From: an uncultured delta proteobacterium
Lineage (GTDB): Bacteria > Myxococcota_A > Polyangia > Polyangiales > Houyiibacteriaceae
Direction of reading: 5' to 3'
Length of the DNA: 64,000 nucleotides
Assembly: GCA_963842915.1 (NCBI GenBank)
Contig: CAWJII010000012.1
Coordinates: 53,320 to 117,319 of the forward strand
Shown one piece after another: positions 13,341 through 62,075 of this stretch. A program made the position numbers and the translations under genes. Within the stretch, counting starts at the first letter, position 1. Each line of letters starts with the position of its first letter. Under the pieces are notes generated by a model, which was not told the DNA's origin, searched no databases, and saw nothing but the letters and a program-made list of their open reading frames with translations.

Positions 13341-14093
13341 CTAGGACAGGGCGCCGCCGTCGGCTCGGATCTCGGTGCCGTTGATGTAGCGCGCGTCGTC
13401 GGAGGCTAGAAAGGCGATGACCGATGCTGCGTGCTTGGGTTTGGCGAAGCCAACGAACGGCATGGCGCCCTTGAGGAGCTCCATGTCGGCGCCCTCGGGC
13501 GCTTTGAAGTCGCCGTGGAGCGACGTGGCGATGCCCCCGGGAATGACGCAGTTCGCGCGAAGGCCTTGCTTCACGTACTCCTGGTAGAGGGCGCGGGTCA
13601 TCGAGAGGATTCCGCCCTTCGAAGCCGCGTAGGCGGCCATCCAGGGGTGGCTGCCCAAAGCGGAAGTCGACGAGCAGTTCACCAACGCGCTGAAACGGTT
13701 CTTGAGTAAGTGCGGGAGGGCGGCTTGGTTCACATAGAAGGTGCCGTTGAGGTTGATGTCGATGATCTGATGCCACTGATCGAAGGTCATCTCATGCGTG
13801 TGGTAGGTGCGGAGGATGCCGGCGCAATGACAGAGGGTGTCGAAGCCGCCCATGTCTTCTGCAGCCTGATCGATCACCGCTTTTACGCCCGCGCCATCGG
13901 CGACGTTGCACTCGTATACCCAGGCCTCGACCCCGTGCGCCTCCGCCATCTGCTTGGTGGCGGCCAAACCCCGTGCGTTGATGTCGATGAGAGCGACGTT
14001 GCCACCCTCCTCCGCAATGCGCTGGGCGGTGGCTTGGCCAATGCCTGCGGCCGCTCCAGTGATCACAACGTTCTTTCCTTCAAACCTTTTCAT
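13341..14093 (-). CDS. SDR family oxidoreductase
   Basis: ITGAAAGIG, YAASK, DGG C-terminus. Confidence 0.9.
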   Translation of the reverse strand: MKRFEGKNVVITGAAAGIGQATAQRIAEEGGNVALIDINARGLAATKQMAEAHGVEAWVYECNVADGAGVKAVIDQAAEDMGGFDTLCHCAGILRTYHTHEMTFDQWHQIIDINLNGTFYVNQAALPHLLKNRFSALVNCSSTSALGSHPWMAAYAASKGGILSMTRALYQEYVKQGLRANCVIPGGIATSLHGDFKAPEGADMELLKGAMPFVGFAKPKHAASVIAFLASDDARYINGTEIRADGGALS

Positions 14094-14119
14094 CGTACTT
14101 CTCGCTCTTCGGTGGTGGT

Positions 14120-15265
14120 CTAGTAGCCGTGAAGCCCCGCCCAGCGTCGCCGGTGTTGCGAAGGCTTCCCAAAAATCATGTACGCGGCATGAGCACGCTT
14201 CATGTAGAACCCAATGTCGTGCTCGTCCGTGACGCCGATGCCGCCGTGCATCTGAATTCCTTCTTTGGCCGCGTGTAAGAACGTCTCCGATGCCATCGCA
14301 TTCGCGAGCACAGAGAGCCTCGGCACGTCCTCGGCTGAGTCATCGATGGCCCGCGCCGCTGCAAGGACGACCGAACGAGTGAGGGCAAGCTCGGTGAAGA
14401 CCGAAACCGCACGGTGCTGGAGCGCTTGAAACGAACCGATCGGAACGCCGAACTGCTCGCGTTCTTTGATGTACTCGACCGTATCCGCGAAGGCCTGCTC
14501 CGCGCCGCCGAGCATCTGAGCCGCCGAGCCGACAGCAGCGCGCTCGAACACGGCCGCGAGCAGCTGCACGCCGCCGTCCAACTCTCCGACGATGCTCTCG
14601 GCGTCGACGGCTACGGAATCGAGACTCACGATGGCCGAGCTCAGCCCGTCAATTCGGTGCTGCCTCTCGATGCTGACCCCCGACTGCGCCGGATCCAGCA
14701 AGAACAGCGTACAGGCCTCGTCGGAAGTCCTCGCCGACACGATGATGCGATCGGCGACGTGTGCGTCGAGGACTTGGAGCTTTGCGCCGCTCAGCTCGAA
14801 ACCATCGCCTGAACGCTTCGCGGCCGTGACCACCCTGCTGAAGTCACCGTGCGAGCCCGCTTCTTCATAGCCGAGCGCCAAAATCTTGTCACCGGCCACG
14901 ACCCCCGGCAGCAGAGTTCTCTTCTGGGATTCGCTCCCCCCCAGCAACAGGGCCTGCGTGCCTAGAAGCAGGGTCGAAACGAACGGCTCGGGCATCAACT
15001 CACGCCCGCTCTGCTCAAGAACCACGCAGAGATCAAAGAAGCCCAAGCCCAGCCCATCGTACTCTTCGGGAATCTGCAGGCCAAGCCAGCCGAGCTCCGC
15101 CATGTCGTTCCAAAGCTCCCGTGAAAACCCAAGCTCGTCTTTCGAGTCCCGAAAGCTGCGAATGCGAGCCGCCGGTGCCCGCTCTCGGATGAACTCATGC
15201 GCCGTCTTCGAGAGCATCTTCTGCTCGTCGTTGAGAAGCAAGGATGGCGCTCTGTGGCCGGGCAT
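14120..15265 (-). CDS. Acyl-CoA dehydrogenase, beta-type subunit of a heterotetrameric steroid ACAD
   Basis: REQFGVPIGSFQALQH, GIQMHGGIG; overlaps the stop of the partner ACAD at 15265. Confidence 0.88.
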   Translation of the reverse strand: MPGHRAPSLLLNDEQKMLSKTAHEFIRERAPAARIRSFRDSKDELGFSRELWNDMAELGWLGLQIPEEYDGLGLGFFDLCVVLEQSGRELMPEPFVSTLLLGTQALLLGGSESQKRTLLPGVVAGDKILALGYEEAGSHGDFSRVVTAAKRSGDGFELSGAKLQVLDAHVADRIIVSARTSDEACTLFLLDPAQSGVSIERQHRIDGLSSAIVSLDSVAVDAESIVGELDGGVQLLAAVFERAAVGSAAQMLGGAEQAFADTVEYIKEREQFGVPIGSFQALQHRAVSVFTELALTRSVVLAAARAIDDSAEDVPRLSVLANAMASETFLHAAKEGIQMHGGIGVTDEHDIGFYMKRAHAAYMIFGKPSQHRRRWAGLHGY

Positions 15266-16467
15266 TACTTCCCCTCCGGCAGGCCGAGCACTCGCTTGGA
15301 CACGATGTTCTTCTGGATTTCGGACGAGCCGCCTTCGATGGTGCTCGCGCGCGAACGGAGCCAGTCACGCGTGTACTGAAGGTCATCCGCGTGAAAGCCT
15401 GGGCCTTCCCAACCGAGGCCTTGAATCCCCGCGACCTTCATGCCGAGCTCGAAGCGCTTCTGCTTGAGCTCCGTGCCGACGATCTTGGTGATCGAGCCCT
15501 CGGGCCCGGGTTGGCCGCTCTCGGCACTCTGCTGAATCCTCGCCAGAGTCAGATGAAACGCCTCTTCGAGCATCCCCAGTGACGCAATCTCGTCTCGAAG
15601 CAAGGGGTCCGGGATTTCGCCTTCGGGCACGCCGAGGTGCCTGCGGGCCCTGGCCACGACTTCTCGTTGTGCGGAGCCCGGTTGGCGCGCGATCGATCGG
15701 CCGATCGACGAACGCTCGTGCCCGAGGATCGCCTTGGCGATCGTCCAGCCTTCGTTCTCCGTGCCCACGAGATTCACAGCGGGCACTCGGACGTTGTCGA
15801 AGAAGGTTTCACAGAACGGCGAGTAGCCGCTAATCAAATCGATCCGCCTCACGGTGATTCCCGGTGTGTTCAGATCCGCAAGAATCACCGAAATGCCCAT
15901 TTGCTTCTTGGGCGCATTTGGATCGGTTCGAGTGAGGCAGTAGATCCAATCACTGAGATTCGCGTGGGAGGTCCATACCTTCTGCCCGTTCAAAACGTAC
16001 TCGTCGCCGTCGCGCTCCGCTTTGAGCTGAAGGTTTGCCAGATCGGAGCCGGCGTTCGGCTCCGAGTAGCCCTGACACCAGCGAACCTCGCCGCGCGCAA
16101 TCCCCGGCAGGTGCTGCGCTCGTTGCACGTCGCTGCCGTACTTGAGCAAGACAGGACCAAACATCGCCAGGCCCTGCCCCGCTACCGGACGCGGCACAGC
16201 GATGGCCTTCATCTCCGCGTGGATGATGTTCTCCTGCTCGCGACTGAGACCTGCGCCTCCGTACTCCTTCGGCCAGGCCGGCGCCGTCCAGCACTTCTCG
16301 ATGCCGAGGTCGCGCCAACGCAGAAGATCGGGGTCGGTCTCCTCGCATTTGGAGCCACCCCAGTAGCCCTCGAACGGGCCGCTGCCGCTGGTTGCCCAGA
16401 GCGACTTGGGCGCGTTCTCGCGGACCCAAGCGCGAGCTTCGGCGCGAAATTCTTCCAAGTCAATCAC
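15265..16467 (-). CDS. Acyl-CoA dehydrogenase, alpha-type subunit
   Basis: WCQGYSEPNAGSDLA, NGQKVWTS, TIEGGSSEIQKNI. Confidence 0.9.
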   Translation of the reverse strand: MIDLEEFRAEARAWVRENAPKSLWATSGSGPFEGYWGGSKCEETDPDLLRWRDLGIEKCWTAPAWPKEYGGAGLSREQENIIHAEMKAIAVPRPVAGQGLAMFGPVLLKYGSDVQRAQHLPGIARGEVRWCQGYSEPNAGSDLANLQLKAERDGDEYVLNGQKVWTSHANLSDWIYCLTRTDPNAPKKQMGISVILADLNTPGITVRRIDLISGYSPFCETFFDNVRVPAVNLVGTENEGWTIAKAILGHERSSIGRSIARQPGSAQREVVARARRHLGVPEGEIPDPLLRDEIASLGMLEEAFHLTLARIQQSAESGQPGPEGSITKIVGTELKQKRFELGMKVAGIQGLGWEGPGFHADDLQYTRDWLRSRASTIEGGSSEIQKNIVSKRVLGLPEGK

Positions 16468-16471: not shown

Positions 16472-17500
16472 TCACTCCGCGGCCCCGGCCTTCTTCATGT
16501 CGAGGGCGACGTCCTCGATCATGTCTTCCTGCCCTCCAACCGTCTTCATCCGGCCCAGCTCGACGAGGATGTCGGTCGACTTGAGTCCGTACTTGTCTGC
16601 CGCGCGCTTCGCGTGAAGCAAGAACGAGGAGTAGACCCCAGCGTAACCAAGCGTGAGTGAATCGCGATCCACGCGAACCTTGTGCGTCATCAGCGGATAG
16701 ACGATCTCTTCGGCCAGATCCATGAGCTTCCACATGTCGACCCCCGTCTCGACGCCCATGCGGTGAAGCACGGCCACGAAGACCTCGAGCGGCGTGTTGC
16801 CTGCACCAGCGCCCATGCCAGCCACCGAGCCATCGATACGCGCTGCTCCAGCCTCGATGGCAGCAAGCGAGTTCGCAATGCCCATGTGCATGTTGTGATG
16901 ACCATGAAAGCCGACCTCGACGTCGGCGTCGAGCTTCTCGCGAAGATAGCCCACGCGCGCCGTCACGTCGTCCGGCAGCATGTAGCCAGCCGAGTCGGTC
17001 ACGTAGATGCAGTTCGCCCCATAGCCCTGCATGAGCTCTGCCTGCTCGAGCAGCTCCTGCGGCCCGATCATGTGAGCCATCATCAGGAAACCCACCGTGT
17101 CCATCTCCATCTTGGCCCCGAGGCCGATGTGCTGCTCCGACACGTCGGCCTCAGTGCAATGCGTGGCCACTCGTATCGTCTGCACGCCGCAGTCGTGGGC
17201 CATCCGCAGATGGTCGACCGTGCCGATGCCCGGAATCAATAGAGCGGAGATCTTGGCGTTCTTCATCTTGGGCACGACCGCCCGGAGGTACTCCTCGTCG
17301 GTGGCGGCCGGAAAGCCGTAGTTTACAGAAGCGCCGCCGAGGCCATCGCCGTGCGTCACCTCGATGAGCGGCACGGCGGCCTCGTCGAGGGCGGTCGCGA
17401 CCTCAATCATTTGCTCCGGCGTGAGCTGGTGGCGCTGGGGATGCATCCCGTCACGCAGGCTCATGTCGTGGAGCGTGACCTTCTTACCTTCGAGATTCAT
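16472..17500 (-). CDS. hsaF: 4-hydroxy-2-oxovalerate/hexanoate aldolase (DmpG/HsaF)
   Basis: [45 protein letters not shown]. Confidence 0.93.
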
Positions 17501-18393
17501 GCTGCCTCCGCACGCTTGATTTCTTCCGCGATGAGCTCGGCCGTCCGCAGACCCGCCGCCGTCATGATGTCGAGATTGCCTGCGTACTTCGGGAGAAAGT
17601 CACCGAGGCCTTCGACCTCCATGAAGAACGATACGCGATTGCCATCGAAGACCGGCCCGTTCTTGAGCGTGTAGCCCGGAACGTACCTCTGGACTTCAGC
17701 GATCATCTGCTCGGCCGACTCGATGATCTCTTTTTGCTTCGGAGCATCTTTGGTCAGGCAGTGAATCGTATCGCGCATCATCAGCGGTGGTTCCGCGGGG
17801 TTGATGATGATGATCGCCTTTCCGCGATCCGCCCCGCCAACGACCTCGACGCCCTTGGCGGTCGTGCGCGTGAACTCGTCGATGTTCCTGCGTGTCCCAG
17901 GACCAGCTGACTTCGATGAGACCGTCGCAATGATTTCCCCGTACTCGACGGGCTGCACGCGGCTGACGGCGGCAACCATCGGAATCGTCGCCTGACCCCC
18001 GCAGGTCACCATGTTCACGTTCTGCTCTCCCCGCCCAACCATCTCTAGAAGATTGACGGGCGGCACGCAGAAGGGGCCGATCGCAGCGGGCGTGAGGTCG
18101 ACCATCTTGACGCCGTACTTCTTGACCAGCTCGTTGTTCGACTCGTGCACGTACGCGCTGGTCGCGTCCCAGGCGATCTGAACTTTGTCGTCGACGATGT
18201 GCGGCTCCATTCCCTTGACCCCATCGGCTGTCGTCTTCAGGCCGAGCTCTTTGGCTCGCTTGAGCCCCTCGGATTCGGGGTCGATCCCGACAACCCAAAC
18301 CGGTTCGATGATGTCACTTCGAAGCGCCTTGTAGAGCAGATCGGTACCGATGTTCCCGGACCCGATGATCGCTGCCTTCACTTTCGTCGTCAT
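17497..18393 (-). CDS. hsaG: Acylating aldehyde dehydrogenase (DmpF/HsaG)
   Basis: [48 protein letters not shown]. Confidence 0.94.
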
Positions 18394-18407: not shown

Positions 18408-19208
18408 CTATGTGAACCGCACCGAGGCAGTCCCAACCCCTTCGACTTCGAGGTGCATCTGGTCGCCCGCAACCACGGGTTCGAGGGGCACCAGGGATCC
18501 CGAGAGCACTACGTCACCGGCGTTCAGGCTGATGCCGAATTCCGACAAGGTATTGGCCAGCCAGCACACGCAATTGACGGGCGAATCAAGCGCGGCCGAG
18601 CCCAGACCCTCACTGAGAAGCTCGCCGTTCTTGTAGACGCTCATTTTCAGATTCGGGAAGTCGAGCCCCTTCGGGTCGGCGTGCTCGTCGCCGAGTACGA
18701 ACAAGCCACAGCTCGCATTGTCGGCGACGGTGTCTTGGATTTTGACCTTCCAGTCATGGACACGGCTGTCGACCACTTCGAAACAGGCCATCACATATTC
18801 GGTCGCGTCCAGGACATCCTCGTTGGTCACGCCGGGTCCCTTCAAGTCTTTGCGGAGCTTGAAGGCGATCTCTCCTTCTGCACGTGGCTGGATCAACTGC
18901 TCGCTGATCGGCATCGGCCCGCCGTTTGGATACATCATTTTGTCTGTGAGGTAACCGAAGTCTGGCTGAAAGACGCCGAGCATCTCCTGCACGGCTCTAC
19001 TCGTGACGCCGATCTTCTTGCCGATAATCTTCTCGCCATCGTCTTCGAGTCGGCGGTTCACCATTCGGAGTGATACGTGGTACGCGTCTTCGATTCGGAT
19101 TTCCGGCCAGCGCTCGGTGAGAGGGCTCAGCGTCCGACGCGCGCGCAAGGCCTCGTAGAGTTCGTCTCCGAGCTCTTCGATTTTGTTGCTGCGCGCTGCA
19201 TCGTCCAT
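18408..19208 (-). CDS. hsaE: 2-hydroxy-penta/hexa-2,4-dienoate hydratase (MhpD/HsaE, FAH family)
   Basis: GKKIGVTSRAVQEMLGV, QPDFG, EVVDSR, DTVADNAS; start at ATG 19208 (MDDAARS), 2 nt after the hsaA stop. Confidence 0.9.
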   Translation of the reverse strand: MDDAARSNKIEELGDELYEALRARRTLSPLTERWPEIRIEDAYHVSLRMVNRRLEDDGEKIIGKKIGVTSRAVQEMLGVFQPDFGYLTDKMMYPNGGPMPISEQLIQPRAEGEIAFKLRKDLKGPGVTNEDVLDATEYVMACFEVVDSRVHDWKVKIQDTVADNASCGLFVLGDEHADPKGLDFPNLKMSVYKNGELLSEGLGSAALDSPVNCVCWLANTLSEFGISLNAGDVVLSGSLVPLEPVVAGDQMHLEVEGVGTASVRFT

Positions 19209-19210
19209 GC

Positions 19211-20401
19211 CTAAATGAAGAAGTCGCTGTTCTTCTGACCAAAGAGTACGCCGCCCATGTTGGAAGCCGGCGTGTCGGGACCGTTGGCGTGGTGAAGACG
19301 AATCGTATGAACGTCTTGGAAGTGGCGGTTGATCGGATGGTCCACGAACGCTGCGCGGGCACCGCATGCGATGAAGAGCTGCTCGACGACCTCGGTGGAA
19401 ACACGAACTGCACGGGCGGAGTCATTGCGAAAGTGCACGCGACGGTCGAGTGGGATTTTCTCTCCACGCTGAAGATAGCCCGACATCTCGTCGAAGTTCC
19501 GTCGCAGCGTGAGCACTTCTCGGTCGAGCACCGCGGTCGCTTCCGCAGCAACCACGCTGTTGGTGAACGAATCCTTGGCCTTGCCGCCGGTCGCCTGCGA
19601 CACCTTGTTCTTCATGAAATCGACATAGGACTCGAGCGCACCGAACGCGGCGCCGACCGCCGGAGTCGAGACCGATCGCACGTGAATCTGGCCGAAAGGG
19701 TACTTGTAGACCGGCGATGTGTTCACCTCGTTGCCCGGACTCTGCTGCCTGAAGCCATCGGAGAACTTGTGCATGCGATGATCCGGAACGAATGCGCCGT
19801 CGACCACGACATCTTTGCTGCCAGACCCACGCAGGCCCGACACGTGCCAGTTGTCGATGATCTCGTAGTCTGCCCGCGGAACCAAGAACGTTCGCATGTC
19901 GGGCGGCTTGCCCTCCTCGTTCGGCACGAAGCCGCCGAGGAACACCCAATCACAAGCATCGCAGCCGCTCGAAAACGACCAACGGCCGCTGAGCTTCACC
20001 CCGCCGTCGACCCATTCGGTCTTGGCGACCGGCATATACGATGAAGAGATCAGCGTCTTGGGATCGTCCCCCCAAACCTCGTTCTGCGCTTCAGGCGCAA
20101 AGAGCGCGAGCTGCCATGAGTGAACGTTCAGCACACCGTAGACCCAAGCGCTCGACGCGCAGCCCCGCCCGAGCTCGAGCTGAAGGTCGAAGATGATCGA
20201 CGGGTCCATCTCGTAGCCGCCATATCGTTTCGGTTGAACGACTTTGAAGAAGCCAAGTCGGTGGAAGTCCTCAATCGTCTCGTCGGGAAGCCTACGAAGC
20301 TCTGCGGCCTTCTTGGATCGCTCCTGCAAAGTAGGGGCAAGATCGCGGGCTCGCTGAATCAGCTCTTCGCGTGTCGGCATCGGGCTCTGATCTCCGTCCA
20401 T
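19211..20401 (-). CDS. hsaA: Flavin-dependent monooxygenase, oxygenase subunit (3-HSA 4-hydroxylase HsaA-like)
   Basis: QPKRYGG, CASSAWVYGVLNVHSWQLALF, ISSSYMP, GRWSFSSGCD, WHVSGLRGSGS; first gene of the hsaE/G/F operon. Confidence 0.85.
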   Translation of the reverse strand: MDGDQSPMPTREELIQRARDLAPTLQERSKKAAELRRLPDETIEDFHRLGFFKVVQPKRYGGYEMDPSIIFDLQLELGRGCASSAWVYGVLNVHSWQLALFAPEAQNEVWGDDPKTLISSSYMPVAKTEWVDGGVKLSGRWSFSSGCDACDWVFLGGFVPNEEGKPPDMRTFLVPRADYEIIDNWHVSGLRGSGSKDVVVDGAFVPDHRMHKFSDGFRQQSPGNEVNTSPVYKYPFGQIHVRSVSTPAVGAAFGALESYVDFMKNKVSQATGGKAKDSFTNSVVAAEATAVLDREVLTLRRNFDEMSGYLQRGEKIPLDRRVHFRNDSARAVRVSTEVVEQLFIACGARAAFVDHPINRHFQDVHTIRLHHANGPDTPASNMGGVLFGQKNSDFFI

Positions 20402-20495: not shown

Positions 20496-20509
20496 TAGAA
20501 CGTGTTCTA
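20496..20509. promoter_or_regulatory. KstR-type operator between divergent hsaA and amidohydrolase
   Basis: TAGAACGTGTTCTA matches TnnAACnnGTTnnA; overlaps a minus-strand TGGACA-N17-TAGAAC promoter-like pair. Confidence 0.8.
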
Positions 20510-20586: not shown

Positions 20587-21459
20587 ATGCCGATACCGAC
20601 TGGCCTCAAAGCCATCGACCTGATGATGAACATCCCCGACGGCGACCCCACCGCCTGGTACGAGTTCATCAAGCCGCTGCTGCTCGATGAGGAGAGCCGG
20701 AAAGTCTTCACGATGCCCGCCCAGTACATGTTCAAAGACATCCCCGAGATCGGCGAGCAGAAGGACTATGTCCAGTACGCCATCGGCGAGATGGACAAGT
20801 GGGGCATTCAGCAGGCGATGCTGGGCATTTCCGGGCCGAACTCCAGTAACCTCGAGGCTTGCCGCAAGTACCCCGAGCGCTTCTTCCCATCCTACGGCGC
20901 CAATCCGAACAACGGCATGGACGAGGTCCGAACGATTCGGAAGCTGCACAAGGAACATGGCCTCAAGGCCGTGACGGGATTCCCTTCGGGTCTATGTCCC
21001 CAAGTTCCACTCAACGACAAGAAGTACTACCCGATCTACGCTACCTGCGTTGACCTGGACATCCCCATTTGCCTCTGCGTGGGCGTCCCTGGCCCGCGTA
21101 TTCCGATGGCGCCGCAGAAGGTCGAGCACATCGACGAAGTGTGCTGGTTTTTCCCGGAGCTCAAGTTCGTCATGCGCCACGGCGGCGAGCCCTGGGTGGA
21201 CCTCGCGGTCAAGCTGATGCTCAAGTACCCGAACCTCTACTACAGCACGAGCGCCTTCGCGCCGAAGCACTACCCGAAGTCGATCATCCACTACGCAAAC
21301 ACGCGCGGAGCCGACAAGATCATGTATGCAGGATACTTCCCGATGGGGCTCTCGCTCGAGCGAATCTTCACCGACATGCAGAACGTGCCGTTCAAAGACC
21401 AAGTTTGGGCGAAGTTCCTCCGCGAAAACGCGATTCGGGTGTTCAAGCTGGACGAATAG
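20587..21459 (+). CDS. Amidohydrolase_2 family protein
   Basis: YPIYATCVDLDIPI, FPELKFVMRHGGEPW, YPNLYYSTSAFAPK, DKIMYAG, FLRENAIRVFKL. Confidence 0.85.
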   Translation: MPIPTGLKAIDLMMNIPDGDPTAWYEFIKPLLLDEESRKVFTMPAQYMFKDIPEIGEQKDYVQYAIGEMDKWGIQQAMLGISGPNSSNLEACRKYPERFFPSYGANPNNGMDEVRTIRKLHKEHGLKAVTGFPSGLCPQVPLNDKKYYPIYATCVDLDIPICLCVGVPGPRIPMAPQKVEHIDEVCWFFPELKFVMRHGGEPWVDLAVKLMLKYPNLYYSTSAFAPKHYPKSIIHYANTRGADKIMYAGYFPMGLSLERIFTDMQNVPFKDQVWAKFLRENAIRVFKLDE

Positions 21460-53811: not shown

Positions 53812-53825
53812 TGAAACACGTTCTT
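53812..53825. promoter_or_regulatory. KstR-type operator (one mismatch) upstream of LLM-fno-cofEDC
   Basis: TGAAACACGTTCTT; overlaps the -35 of TTGAAA (53811)-N17-TAGGGT (53834). Confidence 0.65.
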
Positions 53826-53895
53826 CTTGCTGATAGGGTCCCACTCCCAGAAAAACCCAGGTTGCCTCCTGTTCGGGGGCCCGAAGGAGTTGCGA

Positions 53896-54939
53896 ATGAA
53901 GCTCGGCCTAACACTTGGATATGCAGGTCCTCAGTTGAACACGACGGTCCAGGATCTCGTGAACATGGAGAAGATCGCTGAGGTCGAGCGACTCGGCTAC
54001 GATTCGATTTGGACGGCGGAGTCCTGGGGCAACGACGCGGTCACACCGCTCGCCTGGGTCGGATCGCAGACCTCGACGATCAAGCTCGGCACGGCGATCA
54101 TGCAGCTCCCCGGTCGCTCACCGGCAAACGCGGCGATGACGGCCATGACCATGGACACGCTTTCGAACGGACGCTTCATCATGGGGCTCGGCACCTCAGG
54201 TCCTCAGGTCGTCGAAGGTTGGCACGGCGTACCCTTCAACAAGTCACTCACCTGGCTCCGGGAGTACGTCACGATCGTGAAGAAGATCTTCGCGCGTGAA
54301 GCGCCGCTCGAGTTCGACGGCGTGCGCTATCAGATCCCATATCGCGGCGAAGGCTCCTCGGGTCAGGGCAAACCGCTCCGAAGCATGATCCGAAGCCGAG
54401 CCGACATTCCGGTCTTCACCGGCTCCATGGCGCCGAAGTCCCAGGCTATGTCCGCCGAAATCGCCGACGGTTGCCTGCTCACCTGCATGCACCCCGGGCG
54501 CCCGGAAGTTCTGATGAAGAACTTCAACGAAGGTTTCGAGAAAGCGGGGAATGCAAAGGGGGTCGAGAGCTTCGACATCGCTCCTACGGTTGTGGTCATC
54601 ATCGGTGACCCGCAGTACGCGATGACGCCTTGCAAGATGCAGCTCGCGCTCTACATCGGTGGCATGGGCTCGAAGAAGAAGAACTTCTACAAGGACTATC
54701 TGAGCCTGGTCGGCTTCGAAGAGGCCTGCGAGAAAGTTCAAACGCTCTTCCTCGACGGCAAGCGCAATGAGGCCATCGCCGCTGTGCCCGACGAAATGGT
54801 TGACGCGCTCTACCTGGTAGGCTCTAAAGATCGCATTCGCGACCGGTTCCAGCGTTGGAAGGATTCGCCCGTCGGAACTCTGATGGTCGGTTCGCAGGAC
54901 ATGGACACGCTCCGCTTCGTGGCCGAGCTCAACTCGTGA
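53896..54939 (+). CDS. LLM-class F420-dependent oxidoreductase (Rv3520c-like)
   Basis: MKLGLTLGY, WTAESWG, IKLGTAIMQ, GLGTSGPQVVEGWHG, ALYIGGMG..KNFY. Confidence 0.88.
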   Translation: MKLGLTLGYAGPQLNTTVQDLVNMEKIAEVERLGYDSIWTAESWGNDAVTPLAWVGSQTSTIKLGTAIMQLPGRSPANAAMTAMTMDTLSNGRFIMGLGTSGPQVVEGWHGVPFNKSLTWLREYVTIVKKIFAREAPLEFDGVRYQIPYRGEGSSGQGKPLRSMIRSRADIPVFTGSMAPKSQAMSAEIADGCLLTCMHPGRPEVLMKNFNEGFEKAGNAKGVESFDIAPTVVVIIGDPQYAMTPCKMQLALYIGGMGSKKKNFYKDYLSLVGFEEACEKVQTLFLDGKRNEAIAAVPDEMVDALYLVGSKDRIRDRFQRWKDSPVGTLMVGSQDMDTLRFVAELNS

Positions 54940-54946: not shown

Positions 54947-55603
54947 ATGAGGATTGGAATCGTAGGAGGCACCGGTCGCGAGGGGCGGGGCTTGGCCGTT
55001 CGTTGGGCGAAGGCCGGACACGAGGTGTTCATCGGATCTCGGCAGGCCGAAAAGGGACTGGCGAAGGCAGCCGAGTTCTCGGAGGAATTCGGAGTCAGCA
55101 TCCGGGGTGCCGACAACCTGAGCGCCTGTGAGCACGCCGAGCTGATCATCGTGACGGTTCCGTATGGCGCGCATCGCGCGACATTCGAGTCGATTAAAGA
55201 CGCGGTAGGCGACAAGGTGATCGTAGACATCACGGTACCGTTGCAGCCGCCCAAGGTTCGTTCTGTGAATCTGCCCGAAGGGCAATCAGCTGCTTTGGAA
55301 GCGCGCGCACTGCTCAACGAGGGCTCGCGTCTCGTCGCGGCTCTCCACCACATCAGCTCGGAGCACCTCAGCGACCCGAAGCACACCTTTGACTGCGACG
55401 TCTTGGTCTGTGGCGACGACAAGGAGGCCCGCGCCGCCGTGATCTCACTGGTCTCGGACCTGGGACTTCGCGGCATCGACGCTGGCGTCTTGAAGAACGC
55501 GATTGCCCTGGAGTCGATCACGCCGGTTCTTCTGCACATCAATCGCCGATACAAGAGCGTGGGCTCCGGCATTCGCATCACGGGCATCCCGGAGACGGAA
55601 TGA
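54947..55603 (+). CDS. npdG: NADPH-dependent F420 reductase (Fno/NpdG)
   Basis: MRIGIVGGTGREG, IGSR, VTVPY, DITVPL, CDVLVCGDD, LESITPVL, GIRITG. Confidence 0.92.
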   Translation: MRIGIVGGTGREGRGLAVRWAKAGHEVFIGSRQAEKGLAKAAEFSEEFGVSIRGADNLSACEHAELIIVTVPYGAHRATFESIKDAVGDKVIVDITVPLQPPKVRSVNLPEGQSAALEARALLNEGSRLVAALHHISSEHLSDPKHTFDCDVLVCGDDKEARAAVISLVSDLGLRGIDAGVLKNAIALESITPVLLHINRRYKSVGSGIRITGIPETE

Positions 55604-56415
55604 GCCTCGGCGAGCCAAGTTCGGTCGACATGCACGTCGGCTCGGAGCTCTTGGTTCGCGCGATCGCCGGTGTGCCGACGATCGATGTGGGAGATGACCT
55701 CTTCGAGCTGATCGTTTCGAGCCTCAGCCGCTCCGACATCGAGCTTGCCGACGGCGACGTGCTCGTCCTCGCGAGCAAAATCGTCTCGCGCGCGGAAGGC
55801 TGTTTCGTCGACTTGGGAACAATCGAGCCAGGCGAAAAGGCCGACAAGCTCGCCATAGAGCTCGAGAAGGACCCGCGTCTGGTGGAGCTGATTCTCCGGG
55901 AGAGCGTCGGGATTTCTCGGAAGACCAGTGGCGCGCTGATCGTCCGGCACAGACTGGGCTTCATTTCGGCGAACGCAGGCATCGACGCAAGCAATGCGAC
56001 GCCCGGGAGCATCCCCGCAGGCACGGGCCCCTGGGTGCTCACCTTGCCCCATGATCCGGACGCTAGCGCCGCGGCGCTTCGAGCAAAGCTCTGTGAGCAC
56101 TACTCGGCCGAGGTCGCAGTTCTCATCACAGACTCTTGGGGACGTCCATTTCGACGTGGCACCGTGGGCTTTGCACTGGGCATGGCAGGACTGCCTGCCA
56201 TTTGGGATCGTCGCGGCGCGATCGACCGCCATGGCCGGGTGCTCGAAGCTACCGAATCTGCGGTCGCCGATTCCATCGCGGCAGCCGCCGACCTCGTGGC
56301 CGGACAAGCCAACGAAGGGCGTCCCGTGACTCTGGTACGTGGCCTTCAGTTCAAAGCGTCGCACGATTCGGCGGCGGTCTTGCTTCGCGATCCCGAAAAC
56401 GACTTGTACGCATGA
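55600..56415 (+). CDS. cofE: Coenzyme F420-0:L-glutamate ligase (stand-alone, no nitroreductase domain)
   Basis: [53 protein letters not shown]. Confidence 0.93.
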
Positions 56416-57347
56416 GCGCCGCGTCCGAGAAGAAGCTCTTGGTCGTCGCGCTAGCGGGCGGCGTGGGCGGAGCCCGTCTCGTGGACGGACTCGATTCCGT
56501 ACTCCCTCCGGGCTCGCTCACGGCGGTGGTAAACACCGGTGACGACTTTCAGCACTGGGGCCTGCACATCAGCCCCGACCTCGACACCGTGATGTACACG
56601 CTCGCGGGCCTTTCTCCCGAGGATCGCGGCTGGGGCATCGAGGGCGACAGCTTCCAGGTTCTCGCGGAGGCCAGGCGCCGGGGAGTTGACGACTGGTTCC
56701 AGCTCGGCGACCGCGACCTGCTCACCCACCTGTCGCGCTCCGCCGCGTTAGCCCGGGGCGATTCTCTTACTCAGGCAACCGCGGAACTCTGTAGCGCGCT
56801 CGGCGTAGAGCGGCCGATCCTGCCCATGAGCGACGGGCCCTGCCCAACGAGCATCCTGACCAGAGACGGCGCCGATCTCGCATTCCAGGACTGGCTGGTG
56901 AAGGCGCGAGCCGTGCCCGCGGTGAGCCGAGTTCGTCACGGAGGAAGCGCTCGGGCGACGCGGTCCGCCCTCGACGCTCTGAGCGCTGCCGACCTCGTCC
57001 TGATTTGCCCTTCGAACCCCTACGTGTCGATCAATCCAATCCTGCGTCTGCCGGGCGTATCTGAAGCCGTGCGGCGCTCGATGACGATCGCGGTGAGCCC
57101 GATTCTCAACAGCAAGGCGGTGAAGGGGCCGCTCGCCACGATGATCTCGGAAATCGAAGGCCACAGCCCATCGGCCGCGGCGGTCGCCATGCAATACGAG
57201 GGTTTGCTGGATGGCTACGCGGTTCATCTGGGCGACTCCTTTGGAGCCAACTATCCAATTCTCGAAACGAACATCCTGATTCAAACGAAAGCAGATCGGC
57301 TGCGCTTCGCTGGCGAGCTGCTCGAGTTCGCACGGAGCCTGACATGA
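56412..57347 (+). CDS. cofD: 2-phospho-L-lactate transferase
   Basis: [51 protein letters not shown]. Confidence 0.94.
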
Positions 57348-57940
57348 GCCGCTGGGCATTGATCCCCGTCAAGGGCTTCGATCGTGGGAAGTCGAGGCTC
57401 TCGGAAGTTCTGCCTCCGGTCGAACGGGCTGCCTTGGCGCGCTCATTGTTCGAACACGTCGTGCAGGTCCTTCGGGAGTCTCCGGACATCGACGACATCG
57501 CAGCGGTGAGCGACTCGGCAGAAGCCCGTGCGCACGCCGAAGGTCTGGGCGTGTTGGCGCTCGCGGACGCGGAGCACAGCCCAGGCCTGGCTGAGGTCGT
57601 CGATGGCGCCCTCCGCGACTTGGAGCAGCGTGGCGCCGTCAGCGTGCTGATCTGCATGAGCGACCTACCGAATCTGGCCATGCAGGACATCGCCGCCGTC
57701 GCGCGGCAACTCGAGGAAAGCGACGTCGTGCTCGTGCCCGATCTCGCGAAGCAAGGCACCAACCTCATCGCGGTGAAGCCAGCCACCGGACTTCCGAGCT
57801 GCCTCGGACACGAGGACAGCCTGCAACGTCATCAGGCGCGCGCTTGTGAGCTCGGGTTGAGCGTCAGCATCCAGCTTAGTAGCGGCATCGGATTCGACGT
57901 CGATGGCCCCGGCGACCTCGATCGATTGCGCGAGCGCTAG
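57344..57940 (+). CDS. cofC: 2-phospho-L-lactate/PEP guanylyltransferase
   Basis: WALIPVK, GKSRL, MSDLP, GTN, FDVDGPGDL. Confidence 0.9.
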   Translation: MSRWALIPVKGFDRGKSRLSEVLPPVERAALARSLFEHVVQVLRESPDIDDIAAVSDSAEARAHAEGLGVLALADAEHSPGLAEVVDGALRDLEQRGAVSVLICMSDLPNLAMQDIAAVARQLEESDVVLVPDLAKQGTNLIAVKPATGLPSCLGHEDSLQRHQARACELGLSVSIQLSSGIGFDVDGPGDLDRLRER

Positions 57941-58746
57941 TGCCCCGCGGAGAGACGGTCCATGAGCAGGCCCAGGAAGCGTGCGGCAAGTCGACGCGGC
58001 AGCAGTCTGATCGTCAGGACCATGAGCTTGTTGAGCAAGCCGGGAACGACCGTCACCCGCCCGCCCAAGGTCTGCAAGCTCGTGGCGACGACCGAAGCAG
58101 GACTGGCGAATATCAGGCGCGCCAATGGTCCGAAGTTCCGAGGATCGAGGCCGGCGACCTGCTGGAACTCGGTCGTGGTCCCTCCAGGACAAAGCGCCTG
58201 CACGTCGACGCCGTAGGGTCGGAGCTCTTCGGCGAGACCTTCGGCGAAGAGCAGATCGTACGACTTTGTCGCGTTGTAGTTGGCCATGCCGCCTGCTCCG
58301 GAGAACGCGTTGACTGAGGAGACGAAGATGACGCCACCTCTACCCCGTTCGCGCATTCCCTGAGCGATTTCGTGCGTCAGGAGCATTGGAGCGCGGCAAT
58401 TCAGGTTGAGCATCGACTCCTGAACGCTCGGGTCCATGTCGAGGAAGGGCCCGCTCGAACCGAAGCCCGCGCAATTGATCAGCAAGCCGACCTCGATGTT
58501 AGCAAGCGCCGGTCGCAACACCTCGACGATGTCGCGCGACGCGAGGTCAGCGGGAGCCACTCGCACCTCGACCTGGCACATGTCTTCGATGGTCGAGGCG
58601 AGCGCTTCGAGACGGTTACGGCGGCGCGCCACGAGCACGACGTTGATGCCGTGATCGGCAACGCGGCGCGCGAACTGCGCTCCAATTCCCGCGGAAGCGC
58701 CGGTAATGACGGCCCATGGTCCGTACCGCTCGGCAAGCTGGCTCAT
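57937..58746 (-). CDS. SDR family oxidoreductase (17beta-HSD/KAR-like)
   Basis: RYGPWAVITGASAGIG, LVARR, YNATK, LCPGGT. Confidence 0.88.
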   Translation of the reverse strand: MSQLAERYGPWAVITGASAGIGAQFARRVADHGINVVLVARRRNRLEALASTIEDMCQVEVRVAPADLASRDIVEVLRPALANIEVGLLINCAGFGSSGPFLDMDPSVQESMLNLNCRAPMLLTHEIAQGMRERGRGGVIFVSSVNAFSGAGGMANYNATKSYDLLFAEGLAEELRPYGVDVQALCPGGTTTEFQQVAGLDPRNFGPLARLIFASPASVVATSLQTLGGRVTVVPGLLNKLMVLTIRLLPRRLAARFLGLLMDRLSAGH

Positions 58747-58786
58747 AGCCGGGCAGCGTATCACGCGACGCCGTGGCGGACAGCCT

Positions 58787-60064
58787 CTAGCTGACGACGC
58801 GCAGGCCGCGGGGCTCGTAGTGAAAGCGCGGTTCCCGGGTGAGCGCATCGTAGGAGCCAAAGACCGAATCGGGGTCCTGAATCGCATCGAGTGGCTCGCT
58901 CGGGTCCTGATCAAATGTATCCCCGAATTCGCGAATCACACCGTAGCTGGTGTCGCGCTGCACCGGCACCCTCCCCGAGTCTCGAATGACTCGGCGCAAG
59001 GTCGCGGGCGTCATCAGCTGTCCGTTCCGAGCCCCGGCAGCAGTCGAGATGCTCTCGTTCATCAGAGTCCCGCCGAGATCATTGACACCACAACTCAGTA
59101 GCAGCTGCGAAGTGCGAAGGCCTTCTTTGACCCAGGATGCCTGGAGGTTGGGGATGTCCCGGCCGAGCATGAGGCGGGCCGTCGCATAGAGGCGTAAGAC
59201 CTCGTCACCGGTCGGCCCCGGTCGGACGCCGGCGACCTCGCTTGCCGCGAAGAGCGGGGCTTCCTCGTGCACGAAAGACAGAGGAACGAACTCGGTGAAG
59301 CCTCCGGTCTCCCGCTGGACTCTGCGCAGCAAGTCCATGTGCCGCATCCGATCCTCTACCGTCTCGACGTGACCGAACATCATCGTCGAGCTGGTTCGAA
59401 TTCCGAGGTGATGGGCGGAGGTAACCACGTCCAGCCATTCGCTGGTCGCGATCCGGGTCGGTGAAATCGTCTTGCGCAGACGGTCGTCGAGGATCTCGGC
59501 CGAGGTGCCGGGAAGCGTACCGAGGCCGGCATCCGCGAGCTCGGCCAAGTACTCCGAGTACGACACTCGCTTGAGCGAAGCGCCGAACTTCACCTCTTCT
59601 GGAGAGAAGGCGTGGATGTGAATCTCAGGCGCGGCTTCCTTCACGACACGGCACAGCTCGATGTAGCTGTCTCCATCGAGATTCGGCGAAAGCCCGGCCT
59701 GCAAGCAAACCTCCGTGGCGCCCATCTCCCAGGCCTGACGCACACGCCGTGCAACCTCTTCCTGAGGAAGGAAGTAGCCCTGCTCCGAGCGCACCGTGCG
59801 CGCAAACGCGCAGAACTTGCAGTTCTTGATGCAGACGTTGGTGAAGTTGATGTTGCGGTTGACCACATAGGTGACGCGATCACCCCGCTGCTGCCGGCGA
59901 AGCTCGTCGGCAACCATGCACAAGGCTTGGAGGTCGCGGCCACGTGCCTCGTTCAAGGCGACGCCGTCGTGAATGCTGAGCTCTTCGCCGTCGAGGCTTC
60001 GTTCGAGGATCGCGCGAATGTCGCGCGTGACTGCTTGCAAGCAGGTTTCGAGAGCGGTCGTCAT
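58787..60064 (-). CDS. cofH: FO synthase subunit 2 (radical SAM)
   Basis: NRNINFTNVCIKNCKFC, TEVCLQAG, PGTSAEILDD, FTEFVPLSFVH, QASWVK, NDLGGTLMNESIS. Confidence 0.93.
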   Translation of the reverse strand: MTTALETCLQAVTRDIRAILERSLDGEELSIHDGVALNEARGRDLQALCMVADELRRQQRGDRVTYVVNRNINFTNVCIKNCKFCAFARTVRSEQGYFLPQEEVARRVRQAWEMGATEVCLQAGLSPNLDGDSYIELCRVVKEAAPEIHIHAFSPEEVKFGASLKRVSYSEYLAELADAGLGTLPGTSAEILDDRLRKTISPTRIATSEWLDVVTSAHHLGIRTSSTMMFGHVETVEDRMRHMDLLRRVQRETGGFTEFVPLSFVHEEAPLFAASEVAGVRPGPTGDEVLRLYATARLMLGRDIPNLQASWVKEGLRTSQLLLSCGVNDLGGTLMNESISTAAGARNGQLMTPATLRRVIRDSGRVPVQRDTSYGVIREFGDTFDQDPSEPLDAIQDPDSVFGSYDALTREPRFHYEPRGLRVVS

Positions 60065-61203
60065 GTCGTAGCAAGCTCCTGCTCAAGCAGAACGATGCGG
60101 GGGCGCAGAGACGCGTCGACGAAGCCCGGCGCATCGAGGTGAGTGGGATATACCGGCAGTCGCGCTTCGAGTCGAAACCCTTCGGATTCGCAGGCCTCGC
60201 GGAGGCGTTCTAGGTAGGGCCAGGGGTGCTGCGGGTTGATGTAGTCCGGGCTGACCGGTGAAATGCCACCAAAGTCGTTGATGCCCGCGTGAATCAAGGT
60301 CGCAGTCGAGGCCGGATTGAGGTTCGGTGGCGCCTGGACGCTGACGTCGTCGTCGAGGATGAGCCTGGCCAAGGCGACCGTGGCAGCGAGCTCCTCGGAA
60401 CTGGGTTCGCCCGCGAGTCCCATCGCTGTGCTGGGATGCGAGCGGAAATTTTGGACGATGACTTCACCGATGTGACCGTGATCTCGGTGCAGGCGCCGAA
60501 TCGCGAGAATCGTGTCAACGCGCTCTTCGACGGTTTCCCCGATTCCGATCAGCAGCCCCGAAGTGAACGGGATTTGAAGCTCGCCCGCTTCCCGGGTCAT
60601 TTGAATCCGTTTGGCCGGTCGTTTGTCGGGGGCGCGGTGGTGCGGCATGCCCTTGTCGCAGAGACGCTCGCTGACGTTCTCGAGCATCAACCCGAGGCTC
60701 ACGTTCACGGGTCGCAAGGCGATCATGTCGTCGCGAGAGAGAATCCCGGCGTTGGTATGCGGAAGGAGCCCGGCGGCGAGCGCTTCCTGGGCGGCCCATC
60801 GAAGGTAGTCGACCGTCCGCTGGTGACCCCAGGAACGCAGCAAGGCGCGATATTCACGAAAGCCAGTCTCGGGCGTGTCGCCGAGGCAGAACAGCGCCTC
60901 GATGCAGCCCTGATCGCGCGCTCGGTGGAGCCAAACGCGAATCTCGTCGGGGCTCATCGTCCATTCGCCGGCGTCGCCGGGCGAGCGACGGAACGAGCAG
61001 TAGTCGCATTGGTTCCTGCAGAGGTTGGTGATCGGCAGAAACACCTTGGGCGAGTAGGTCAGTGTCTTGCCCCAGGCTCTATCCCGCCGCACTCGAGCCG
61101 CCTGGCAAAGGCTGGCAGTGTCGAGCTCGCTCAGTCGGTAGGCATCCTGCTCACCGACCGGTCCGAGCCTTGCACCGTCCAGAATTGTCGGCATCGAGCT
61201 CAT
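60061..61203 (-). CDS. cofG: FO synthase subunit 1 (radical SAM)
   Basis: TYSPKVFLPITNLCRNQCDYC, LPHTNAG, SLGLMLE, PFTSGLLIGIGE, EVIVQNF, QAPPNL, DYINPQHPWP. Confidence 0.93.
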   Translation of the reverse strand: MSSMPTILDGARLGPVGEQDAYRLSELDTASLCQAARVRRDRAWGKTLTYSPKVFLPITNLCRNQCDYCSFRRSPGDAGEWTMSPDEIRVWLHRARDQGCIEALFCLGDTPETGFREYRALLRSWGHQRTVDYLRWAAQEALAAGLLPHTNAGILSRDDMIALRPVNVSLGLMLENVSERLCDKGMPHHRAPDKRPAKRIQMTREAGELQIPFTSGLLIGIGETVEERVDTILAIRRLHRDHGHIGEVIVQNFRSHPSTAMGLAGEPSSEELAATVALARLILDDDVSVQAPPNLNPASTATLIHAGINDFGGISPVSPDYINPQHPWPYLERLREACESEGFRLEARLPVYPTHLDAPGFVDASLRPRIVLLEQELATT

Positions 61204-62075
61204 TGCATCTTTGCGATGACCGTGTCCGCGAATCGGTTCAGTCCATCAATGCGCCCCTGCAAGTCGCCGCCCACCATGGGAGTCCCGTACATGAGCCAGG
61301 GAACGGTGATGATGTCCGTCACACCTGCATCTTCGAGGCTCTTGAAGCCATCGGCGTTCCAGACGTCGGTGACCACCGCCTGGTACTCCATCGGCAAATG
61401 ATCGCGGCCGTACTCTTTGCGAAAGGCTTCGATTTGGCCGATCAGCTCGAGCAGCTTCTTTGAGGGAAGCATCGCTGAGGACCAGCCGTCACCATATTTC
61501 GCGGCTCGCCGAAGCCCGGGCCTGGTGTGGCCCCCGATGTAAATCGGGATCGGCTTGCTCGGCACCGGGCTCATCTGAATCTTACCGAAGTCGTAGTGCT
61601 CGCCATGGTATTCGACCATGCCGCCGCCCCAGATCAGTCGAAGGATCTCGAGGCACTCGTTCATGCGCTTGCCGCGCGTGTCGAAGTCGGTACCACACCA
61701 CTTGAATTCCTCGGGCAACCAGCCGAGTCCGCAGCCGAAGCCAAAGCGGTTGTTTGATAGTGCCGCCAAGGAAGCGACCTGTTTTGCAACCAAGACCGGG
61801 TGACGCACGGGCAGCTTCACGACGCTGGTGTAGAAGAAAATCGACTTGGTGGCGCCTGCCATGGCGGCCGCGCCCACGATGGGCTCGATCCAAGGCGTCT
61901 CGCCATCCCACATGCGGCTACCATCTTGAGTGTACGGGTACGGCTTGCTGACTTCTTCGGAGAAGAAGATCGAGTCCGGTAGGACGATGGCGTGATAGCC
62001 GAGTTTCTCCGCCTCCTGAGCGACCGGGATATAGTGCTCGGGCGGCGCCATGGCGATGGACGCAGAGAATTTCAT
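61200..62075 (-). CDS. LLM-class F420-dependent oxidoreductase (Rv2161c/TIGR03619-like)
   Basis: YPYTQDG, VKLPVRHPVLVAKQ, GLGWLPEEF, IPIYIGG, RAAKYGDGW; ATGA overlap with cofG. Confidence 0.87.
   Translation of the reverse strand: MKFSASIAMAPPEHYIPVAQEAEKLGYHAIVLPDSIFFSEEVSKPYPYTQDGSRMWDGETPWIEPIVGAAAMAGATKSIFFYTSVVKLPVRHPVLVAKQVASLAALSNNRFGFGCGLGWLPEEFKWCGTDFDTRGKRMNECLEILRLIWGGGMVEYHGEHYDFGKIQMSPVPSKPIPIYIGGHTRPGLRRAAKYGDGWSSAMLPSKKLLELIGQIEAFRKEYGRDHLPMEYQAVVTDVWNADGFKSLEDAGVTDIITVPWLMYGTPMVGGDLQGRIDGLNRFADTVIAKMQ

Follow-up and report, generated by a model that had tools for sequence, protein, structure and literature searches.

Here, we describe a stretch of 64,000 nucleotides (hereafter the window, to which all positions refer unless a contig is named) from the genome of an uncultured delta proteobacterium, corresponding to 53320-117319 of contig C12. 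A gene block at positions 13341-62075 appears to encode the central part of an aerobic 9,10-seco pathway for steroid breakdown under KstR control, in an uncultured sediment myxobacterium of Polyangiales type, a reading to which we assign a probability of about 80%. The genome comprises 4.59 Mb in 16 contigs and is rated 99.94% complete and 1.22% contaminated. Family scans placed nearly all open reading frames (ORFs) of the block in families of aerobic steroid catabolism or of cofactor F420 metabolism (Table 1), and the gene types that a preliminary description had listed for the block were found in place. Our data concern gene families, operator sites, synteny and distribution, from which the enzymatic steps, the substrate and the use of F420 are predicted.

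The C/D-ring (hydrindane, HIP) module was represented by FadD3, an EchA20-type hydratase and a PRK07801 thiolase, all scoring over their cut-offs, together with CoA-transferase subunits A and B and a nitronate monooxygenase (NMO)-like gene. A genome search found ipdA, ipdB, ipdC, echA20 and fadD3 in the window only, making the HIP module single copy, and the order of the C/D-ring genes matched that in Tsukamurella, Sphingobium and Vibrio records. IpdA orthologues with 61-71% identity were present in nine of 10 genomes from other Myxococcota families; the query used gave no IpdA match in one FadD3- and CofH-positive genome of the same order (G007). Curated cut-offs were also exceeded by HsaF, HsaG, the PRK07798 ligase, the PRK07937 and PRK08313 models (both matching one fused thiolase-like protein), PRK07851, PRK07938, the short-chain dehydrogenases/reductases (SDRs) PRK07791 and PRK07856, the Rv3520c- and Rv2161c-family luciferase-like monooxygenases (LLMs), and npdG, cofE, cofD, cofG and cofH, while HsaA and a CasG-like ligase gave best-scoring matches under the equivalog cut-offs. 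Correspondences between PRK models and Rv numbers are provisional.

Compared with the preliminary description, the C/D-ring set was recovered as fadD3, ipdAB, ipdC, echA20, thiolases and acyl-CoA dehydrogenase (ACAD) pairs, but the names fadE30-33, ipdF and Rv3548c/49c, which depend on those correspondences, were not confirmed. The side-chain set of a fadD19-type ligase, a DUF35 protein, ltp3/4 and paired ACADs was likewise present, except that ltp3 and ltp4 form a single fused gene and that SCP2 was absent from the scanned ORFs. The hsaA/E/G/F genes and the Rieske oxygenase were found as families, with the reservation on HsaA given above, and CofG and CofH proved to be separate ORFs as described. 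The PilZ protein shrank to a weak match. The STAS/SEC14-like proteins disappeared, since domain scans found neither domain in any scanned window ORF and orf131 gave a sub-threshold DUF7793 match alone. The PilZ-like protein, orf167 and orf131 are three small proteins kept in the cluster without a convincing family.

Table 1. Features of the steroid and F420 gene block (positions in the window; scores in bits)
Feature	Position	Strand	Score or remark
SDR family oxidoreductase	13341-14093	-	End of hsa operon; 85-96% identity in relatives
ACAD pair 1 (pimD-small + pimC-large type, heteromeric)	14120-16467	-	219, 277
hsaF (aldolase)	16472-17500	-	546
hsaG (acetaldehyde dehydrogenase)	17497-18393	-	452
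hsaE-like hydratase	18408-19367	-	395; true start probably near 19190
HsaA-like flavin-dependent monooxygenase, oxygenase subunit	19211-20401	-	NF045629, 413 (cut-off 450), best family match
KstR-type operator, perfect palindrome TAGAACGTGTTCTA	20496-20509	.	Divergent hsaA/amidohydrolase promoter
Amidohydro_2 family protein	20587-21459	+	98; divergent from hsaA; 86-96% identity in relatives
rlmKL (23S rRNA methyltransferase)	21671-23902	-	795; housekeeping gene inside cluster
KstR-like TetR repressor (TetR_N + TetR_C_20)	23808-24386	-	Last catabolic gene of operon starting at 30123
KshA-type Rieske oxygenase, 332 amino acids (aa)	24389-25387	-	KshA_C 179, Rieske 75
FadD19-type ligase	25394-26998	-	PRK07798, 690
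Fused Ltp3+Ltp4-type two-thiolase protein	27011-29215	-	One gene; PRK07937 + PRK08313 over cut-offs
Double OB-fold/DUF35 protein	29215-30123	-	Domain scan
KstR-type operator	30530-30543	.	Upstream of DUF35-ltp-fadD19-kshA-kstR operon, hence of the repressor's own operon
Small PilZ-like protein	30617-30985	-	25 (weak); kept in cluster, 58-96% identity in relatives
fadA6-type thiolase	31126-32280	-	PRK07801, 707 (cut-off 591)
ACAD pair 2	within 31126-38277	-	One of three pimC/pimD-like pairs
ipdC-like NMO/FabK-like gene	34536-35903	-	IpdC position
CoA-transferase B and A (ipdB, ipdA)	35900-37506	-	
EchA20-type hydratase	37516-38277	-	PRK07938, 393 (cut-off 260)
KstR-type operator	38306-38319	.	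29 bp upstream of echA20
orf167	38329-38832	-	Conserved, no family match; 55-67% identity in G001, G004, G005
fadD3 (HIP-CoA ligase family)	38999-40603	+	766 (cut-off 657)
SDR after fadD3	within 38999-44727	+	168
orf131	41396-41791	+	No family
CasG-like steroid-acyl-CoA ligase	within 38999-44727	+	656 (cut-off 750)
Thiolase PRK07851	within 38999-44727	+	657
Ala_racemase_N-like (424 aa) and Rce1-like (300 aa) genes	44753-46941	+	Between fadA5 and curA-like gene
KstR-type operator	46961-46974	.	Upstream of curA-like gene
CurA-like NADPH enone reductase, SDR PRK07791, SDR PRK07856, ACAD pair 3	46987-52015	+	True start of PRK07856 SDR near 48914
NAD-dependent epimerase/3-beta-HSD family protein	52797-53819	-	
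LLM class F420-dependent oxidoreductase, Rv3520c family	53827-54939	+	TIGR03559, 361 (cut-off 335)
npdG (Fno), cofE (stand-alone), cofD, cofC	54947-57940	+	cofD ORF from 56136, domain from about 56440
SDR between two cof operons	57937-58914	-	
cofH	58787-60064	-	471 (cut-off 374)
cofG	60061-61203	-	416 (cut-off 213)
LLM class F420-dependent oxidoreductase, Rv2161c family	61200-62075	-	196 (cut-off 167)

The regulator and its operator point in the same direction. The closest solved structure of the TetR_C_20 repressor was M. tuberculosis KstR (E 4e-22, residues 3-191 of 192), and all five matches in a plasmid collection were actinobacterial, the top one being annotated kstR with 35% identity. 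The repressor is thus likely, though not proven, to be an orthologue of KstR, because identity is low. The core of the palindrome TAGAACGTGTTCTA is the same as that in the mycobacterial kstR promoter, TAGAAC(N2)GTTCTA, a motif reported with its experimental basis in Kendall 2007 (PMC1995591). The motif TnnAACnnGTTnnA occurred four times in the window against 0.42 expected, a count reached in none of 100 shuffles, and all four sites are intergenic and are predicted binding sites. Allowing up to two mismatches in the palindrome revealed no further sites. What we take to be the KstR2 operator consensus, AnCAAGnnCTTGnT, had no match in the window, and a KstR-type box lies upstream of echA20 instead.

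Genome-wide, the loose motif gave 39 sites, compared with 15-23 in five shuffles. A refined motif, built from the four window sites and hence circular for those four, gave 20 sites, compared with a mean of 1.15 and a maximum of four in 20 block shuffles; each of these sites is intergenic and at most 160 bp from a start codon. Sixteen of them are outside the window, and 11 of those stand before genes that had been flagged as pathway candidates ahead of the motif scan: two sites serve an operon on contig C4, and one each a kstD-like gene paired with a reductase, hsaD, a kshA paralogue, the KshB-type reductase, the HsaB-like reductase, both of two flavoproteins, an ACAD pair and a thiolase. Downstream of the remaining five are genes for an aldehyde dehydrogenase, an NMO-like protein, a P450, an unknown 158-aa protein and a pdxJ/PaaX-like pair. 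In this last case, the box stands between pdxJ and the PaaX-like regulator, upstream of the window (C12:30400-32069), and the latter is possibly a second regulator tied to the regulon. The dispersed pathway genes would thus form one regulon, for which the motif sites provide independent support.

The remaining enzymes for rings A and B are encoded elsewhere in the genome, where genes resembling kstD, kshB, hsaB, hsaC (two copies) and hsaD were all found. HsaA, HsaB, HsaC and HsaD were the best or second-best family for their respective genes, at scores under equivalog level. On contig C14, HsaC-like and HsaD-like genes adjoin each other near a P450, a GMC oxidoreductase, an aldehyde dehydrogenase, a DctP-type binding protein and a TetR regulator. 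The C4 operon (109600-118600) reads kshA-like, second hsaA (421 bits, cut-off 450), hsaC-like and again kshA-like, with two tandem KstR boxes 15 bp apart, and its neighbors are a hemerythrin, a GMC oxidoreductase and an 811-aa sulfatase, the last a hint that sterol sulfates are substrates. An HsaB-like flavin reductase (136 bits, cut-off 230) and a PaaE-type (KshB-type) reductase, the latter beside a further KshA paralogue downstream of a KstR box, were also detected, as were two PRK07121-type flavoproteins as further candidates. The window KshA-type protein carries the CxH...CxxH and His-x4-His motifs, and its closest Protein Data Bank structures were KshA (5e-61 to 3e-53). The 4.6-Mb genome encodes six KshA-type Rieske oxygenase paralogues, the window copy and five elsewhere.

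For assignment of the host, we used RlmKL, encoded by a housekeeping gene within the cluster, as the query. The 41 best loci (65-97% identity) all came from metagenome-assembled genomes (MAGs), followed by matches of at most 42% (Halieaceae and others). Titles naming Polyangiales, Polyangiaceae, Sandaracinaceae, Myxococcales, Myxococcota or a delta-proteobacterium accompanied 38 of the 41, the others being two from an "uncultured bacterium" and one Coxiellaceae, and this naming draws on submitters' MAG titles and one marker protein. Polyangiales are placed in Myxococcota by the NCBI taxonomy. By this marker, the host is an uncultured Polyangiales-type Myxococcota lineage, in agreement with the non-actinobacterial, Myxococcota-like origin proposed in the preliminary description. 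The Coxiellaceae-titled bin carries the same cluster with 70-90% protein identity, and its label is probably wrong.

The cluster is conserved in these relatives. The KstR-like gene lies beside rlmKL in 40 of the 41 loci, the exception being a 3.6-kb contig, and both flanks are present in 28, with the other 13 ending at contig edges. One flank reads tetR-kshA-fadD19-ltp-DUF35-pilZ-fadA6-ACAD, and the other amidohydrolase/hsaA-E-G-F-ACAD-SDR, often continuing to the DJ-1 and maeB genes. The catabolic proteins are mostly 80-97% identical in relatives, exceeding the conservation of RlmKL. In all five relatives with long contigs, cofH is 33-36 kb from rlmKL, and the three relatives compared (G001, G004 and G005) share the window's gene order all the way from DUF35 to metH, F420 genes included. 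The Ala_racemase_N-like/Rce1-like pair, missing from the cluster of these three, is a local insertion outside the conserved cluster. Because synteny is kept across related MAGs, the block is judged to be old, vertically inherited and free of chimerism. In every one of the 41 related loci, rlmKL sits within the cluster, where it overlaps the 3' part of the KstR-like gene.

Near-identical DNA was found in 15 sequencing runs from seven studies (share of sampled words 0.65-0.96; one run may be the source of the assembly), whose labels are salt-marsh, marine or freshwater sediment, sediment, or soil metagenome; this habitat reading leaves out runs that share few words. Four RNA libraries, drawn from three studies, yielded contigs that matched window genes with 0-1 differences, covering ipdB, echA20, fadD3, the SDR/orf131 region, casG, fadA5, curA/SDR3, ACAD3, the epimerase, the Rv3520c-type LLM and npdG. 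These are short Logan contigs that carry neither strand nor level, may derive from contaminating DNA and are uninformative for uncovered bins, so they provide a hint of expression of the window genes. RNA-library contigs of one run mapped onto the Ala_racemase_N-like/Rce1-like genes.

The supercluster was next compared with known systems, for which we used a plasmid collection, a biased sample, plus seven reference stretches of at most 50 kb each, where a dash in the gene-by-gene comparison does not mean absence. By protein identity, the supercluster is a mosaic of at least three affinities. The label actinobacterial-type, given in the preliminary description, suits the regulator and operator, the fadD19/DUF35/ltp genes, ipdABC and echA20, and the F420-dependent LLMs, but not hsaA/E/F, which are nearer to proteobacterial genes, nor the split cofG/cofH and stand-alone cofE. 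The ipdA, ipdB, ipdC, echA20, ACAD2-large and SDR3 genes favor Actinobacteria by 6-19 points (IpdA 59-65% identical to Actinobacteria versus 52-56% to Proteobacteria). Conversely, hsaE, hsaF (both 56-58% identity) and hsaA favor Proteobacteria (HsaA 45-48% to Burkholderiaceae and sphingomonads versus 41-42% to Actinobacteria), and fadD3 ties. The 12 best of 20 plasmid records matching the FadD19-type ligase were all actinobacterial; the DUF35 protein is 51% and 47% identical to Nocardia and Tsukamurella loci, and the Rv2161c-family LLM is 51% identical to a gene in Nocardia reference loci. The 29 plasmid records matching the Rv3520c-type LLM were, by organism name, 24 actinobacterial and five haloarchaeal, the best being from Rhodococcus and Tsukamurella (45-46%). 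In an unrooted IpdA tree of 20 rows, four proteobacterial sequences fell on one side (86/87), and all three actinobacterial sequences grouped with 12 of 13 Myxococcota sequences in a single group (100/99). The Myxococcota rows represent ten families, and relations inside this mixed group form a polytomy. Without a root and with that polytomy, the tree does not point to a donor. A recent transfer is unlikely, as identities to any named relative are 32-75%.

With the Mycobacterium/Rhodococcus cholesterol region and KstR regulon, the window shares the KstR-like TetR repressor with its 14-bp palindrome at several promoters, the fadD19/DUF35/ltp3/ltp4 module, the echA20-ipdA-ipdB-ipdC order, fadD3, paired ACADs and the Rv3520c-family F420-dependent LLM. 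The module order in the Tsukamurella record is the same as in the window. By contrast, the window host belongs to Myxococcota, its C/D-ring operon has a KstR-type box and no KstR2-type box, ltp3 and ltp4 are fused, Mce4 was not found, hsaA/E/F are nearer to proteobacterial homologues, kstD, hsaB, hsaC, hsaD and kshB lie at other loci, and genes for F420 synthesis adjoin the cluster, in split rather than fused form. Proteobacterial 9,10-seco clusters, a kind to which the Comamonas tes/scd genes also belong, were compared through records of sphingomonads, Caballeronia and Vibrio; they share the ipdAB-echA20-NMO arrangement and have the nearer hsaA/E/F, whereas their ipdA, ipdB, ipdC and echA20 are 6-19 points less similar than the actinobacterial ones; no homologue of KstR, the FadD19-type ligase, DUF35 or the F420-dependent LLMs was detected in the stretches compared, which does not imply absence genome-wide. 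Split CofG/CofH and a stand-alone CofE are the pattern of Chloroflexota and Proteobacteria, with whose F420 genes the window shares cofC, cofD, cofE, cofG, cofH and Fno. Here, however, the cof genes end a steroid supercluster and are flanked by F420-type LLMs of actinobacterial affinity.

To our knowledge, no role has been assigned to F420-dependent enzymes in sterol catabolism; the one mention that we came across, in a review (PMC12855090), names Rv3520c as one of the cholesterol enzymes. In the window, cofG, cofH, cofC, cofD and cofE all scored over family cut-offs or Pfam gathering scores, and F420 production itself is predicted. The CofE protein (271 aa) covers only positions 7-242 of the 449-position FbiB-type model, and there is no actinobacterial FbiB/FbiC-type fusion; the nearest named CofH was that of Thermomicrobium roseum (56%), followed by Paracoccus, Leisingera, Paraburkholderia and Sinorhizobium (49-51%). 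We tentatively suggest, at less than even odds, that F420 may take a functional part in sterol catabolism of the actinobacterial type, by way of the Rv3520c-family LLM and a KstD-coupled Ddn-family reductase, so that pathway-bearing Myxococcota would keep F420 synthesis, welded to the cluster in this genus, and about one-quarter of the sampled species would be sediment and soil organisms that consume sterols aerobically and have gone unrecognised as such. The possibility that the F420 genes merely adjoin the steroid genes and serve xenobiotic, quinone or antibiotic reduction, co-occurrence reflecting shared ancestry or lifestyle, is held by us with the same hesitation.

Distribution bears on both explanations. 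In a phylum sample of 401 Myxococcota genomes, the window's own included, FadD3 exceeded its family cut-off in 97 and CofH in 115, with 85 genomes having both, 12 only FadD3, 30 only CofH and 274 neither. CofH was thus present in 85 of 97 FadD3-positive but 30 of 304 FadD3-negative genomes, although the genomes are kin and not independent, so that a Fisher value for this co-occurrence overstates it. The two proteins occur together in 17 family codes, and in one family two genera have both and four have neither, the latter pattern speaking against mere adjacency. On the other side stand the 12 FadD3-positive genomes without CofH, including all sampled FadD3-positive members of four families, and the 30 genomes with CofH alone, some of which show FadD3 matches truncated or near the cut-off at contig ends.

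Physical linkage is similarly divided. Besides the two F420-type LLMs and Fno within the conserved block, there is a gene pair on contig C13 (145501-147705) that is preceded by a perfect KstR box: the stop of the kstD-like gene and the start of a gene for a 144-aa, F420H2-dependent reductase of the Ddn family (PF04075, TIGR00026) have 4 nt in common. This adjacency is kept in G001 and G005 only; G004 gave no orthologue with the query used, and beyond the close clade we found just paralogue-level reductase matches (35-42%) without kstD. The spacing of FadD3 and CofH, from coordinates compared, is 17-20 kb in three same-genus genomes and a genome of family f33. Against a functional tie, motif scans found no KstR box directly before the cof operons, and the cof genes differ in origin from the actinobacterial-like steroid genes. 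Moreover, in five genomes of other families no Rv3520c-type LLM was found near FadD3, the best match being located either on a different contig or at a distance of at least about 1 Mb, and in two of these, which are complete, CofH is more than 1 Mb from FadD3. Actinobacteria offer support for the tie: a Tsukamurella record has LLM-F420 and PPOX-F420 genes within its steroid cluster, and in Kendall 2007 (PMC1995591) the M. tuberculosis Rv3520c/Rv3521 intergenic region has a KstR motif with positive experimental evidence. The Tsukamurella PPOX-F420 protein and an adjacent hypothetical protein, used as queries, gave no match in the present genome, which is not proof of absence.

Several observations weigh against the block being a steroid-degrading core, in addition to the limits given above for the host name and the RNA signal. 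The KstD-like flavoprotein on C13 scored 585 bits (equivalog cut-off 789), the two HsaC-like genes 228 and 200 bits (cut-off 450) and the HsaD-like gene 198 bits (cut-off 400), and these shortfalls, together with those of HsaA and CasG, mean that other ring substrates are possible. Vibrio queries matched neither a ChsH-type MaoC hydratase nor its OB-fold partner in the genome, which is not proof of absence, and no Mce4-type operon (six Mce proteins with YrbE permeases) was found, the genome containing only two MlaD-domain matches, on different contigs. Finally, we know of no cultured member of the lineage, and function is predicted from genes. An unlikely alternative is that these steroid-like enzymes act not on sterols but on other alicyclics or aromatics, for instance biphenyl-type aromatics, terpenoids or natural products resembling hydrindane. 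This reading would fit the sub-cut-off matches, the last side-chain cycle not having been found, the window KshA-type protein having about 55 fewer C-terminal residues than solved KshAs, and the higher scores of the HsaC-like genes against the BphC model (299 versus 228 and 278 versus 200 bits). It sits poorly with FadD3 over its equivalog cut-off, an IpdAB, IpdC and EchA20 arrangement as in steroid degraders, the presence of KstR with its operator, a FadD19/DUF35/Ltp3-4 module as in Tsukamurella, and the HsaD model outscoring BphD (198 versus 172 bits).

Some myxobacteria synthesise sterols, and the genes might serve to modify or reuse sterols made by the cell itself, not to feed on external ones. 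A preprint reports sterol-modifying genes in uncultured Myxococcota, with a sterol reductase common to these and Mycobacteriales (10.64898/2026.02.26.708318). We consider such a use of the cell's sterols very improbable here, as the 99.94%-complete genome yielded no squalene/oxidosqualene cyclase (PF13243 gave one marginal, partial match of 25.7 bits) and the complete-looking ring-opening and HIP set would lead to central metabolites, not modified sterols. Because no cyclase was found, the lineage looks like a sterol consumer and not a producer. The gene sets are consistent with the sterol-consuming, F420-producing lineage envisaged in the preliminary description, consumption being predicted from genes only. 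That the block is an assembly or binning artefact joining actinobacterial DNA to a myxobacterial contig, as the many best named relatives in Actinobacteria might suggest, is scarcely credible given the even GC content (60-64% along the window), rlmKL inside the block and ilv/leu/maeB genes flanking it, the same gene order in independent MAGs and the modest identities to Actinobacteria (32-75%).

The flank at 1-13271 contains ilvB, ilvC, leuA, leuC, leuD, cimA, leuB, a malic enzyme gene and a DJ-1 protein gene, so that maeB and the ilv/leu genes border the steroid block. The citramalate synthase gene cimA (8072-9742) lies beside leuA in the leu operon, which suggests a citramalate route for isoleucine.

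Based on these assignments, we propose the following pathway. A sterol or other steroid would be converted to its 3-keto form by candidate GMC oxidoreductases, the 3-beta-HSD-like protein or P450s, mostly encoded at other loci. The side chain would be activated and shortened by the FadD19- and CasG-type ligases, ACAD pairs, thiolases and the fused Ltp3/4-DUF35 module. Ring B would be opened by the KstD-like enzyme and KshA/KshB-like enzymes, and ring A cleaved by HsaA/HsaB-, HsaC- and HsaD-like enzymes, with the hexadienoate fragment passing to central metabolites via HsaEFG. The hydrindane would be degraded by FadD3, IpdAB, IpdC, EchA20, the FadA6-type thiolase and ACAD pairs. The KstR homologue is predicted to repress at least four window promoters and about 16 elsewhere through the mycobacterial 14-bp palindrome, and the cof genes and Fno may supply and recycle F420 for the two LLMs of the block and the kstD-coupled Ddn-family reductase.

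Two genomic surveys, Holert 2018 (PMC5790920) and Bergstrand 2016 (PMC4810484), present aerobic steroid degradation as limited to Actinobacteria and Proteobacteria, and neither main text mentions Deltaproteobacteria or Myxococc-. In a full-text search that covered main texts and few subscription journals, we found no literature dealing with steroid degradation or with F420 biosynthesis for members of Myxococcota; bins of this kind may figure in the supplementary MAG tables of Holert 2018. The block thus represents a known pathway in mosaic form, in a phylum to which that pathway has not been attributed, and points to a likely third bacterial phylum of sterol consumers beside Actinobacteria and Proteobacteria. 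Whereas myxobacteria have a reputation for producing sterols, the present lineage combines a catabolic system that looks complete and is predicted to be under repressor control with the lack of any cyclase that we could find. Sterols are major, slowly degraded sediment lipids, and a widespread sterol-consuming guild in sediments would bear on carbon turnover and on the preservation of sterol biomarkers. The physical and statistical link to F420 is a lead to the part that F420-dependent enzymes play in sterol catabolism and, if F420 indeed takes part in the pathway, this third phylum of steroid degraders would offer a tractable, non-pathogenic route to the F420-dependent step.

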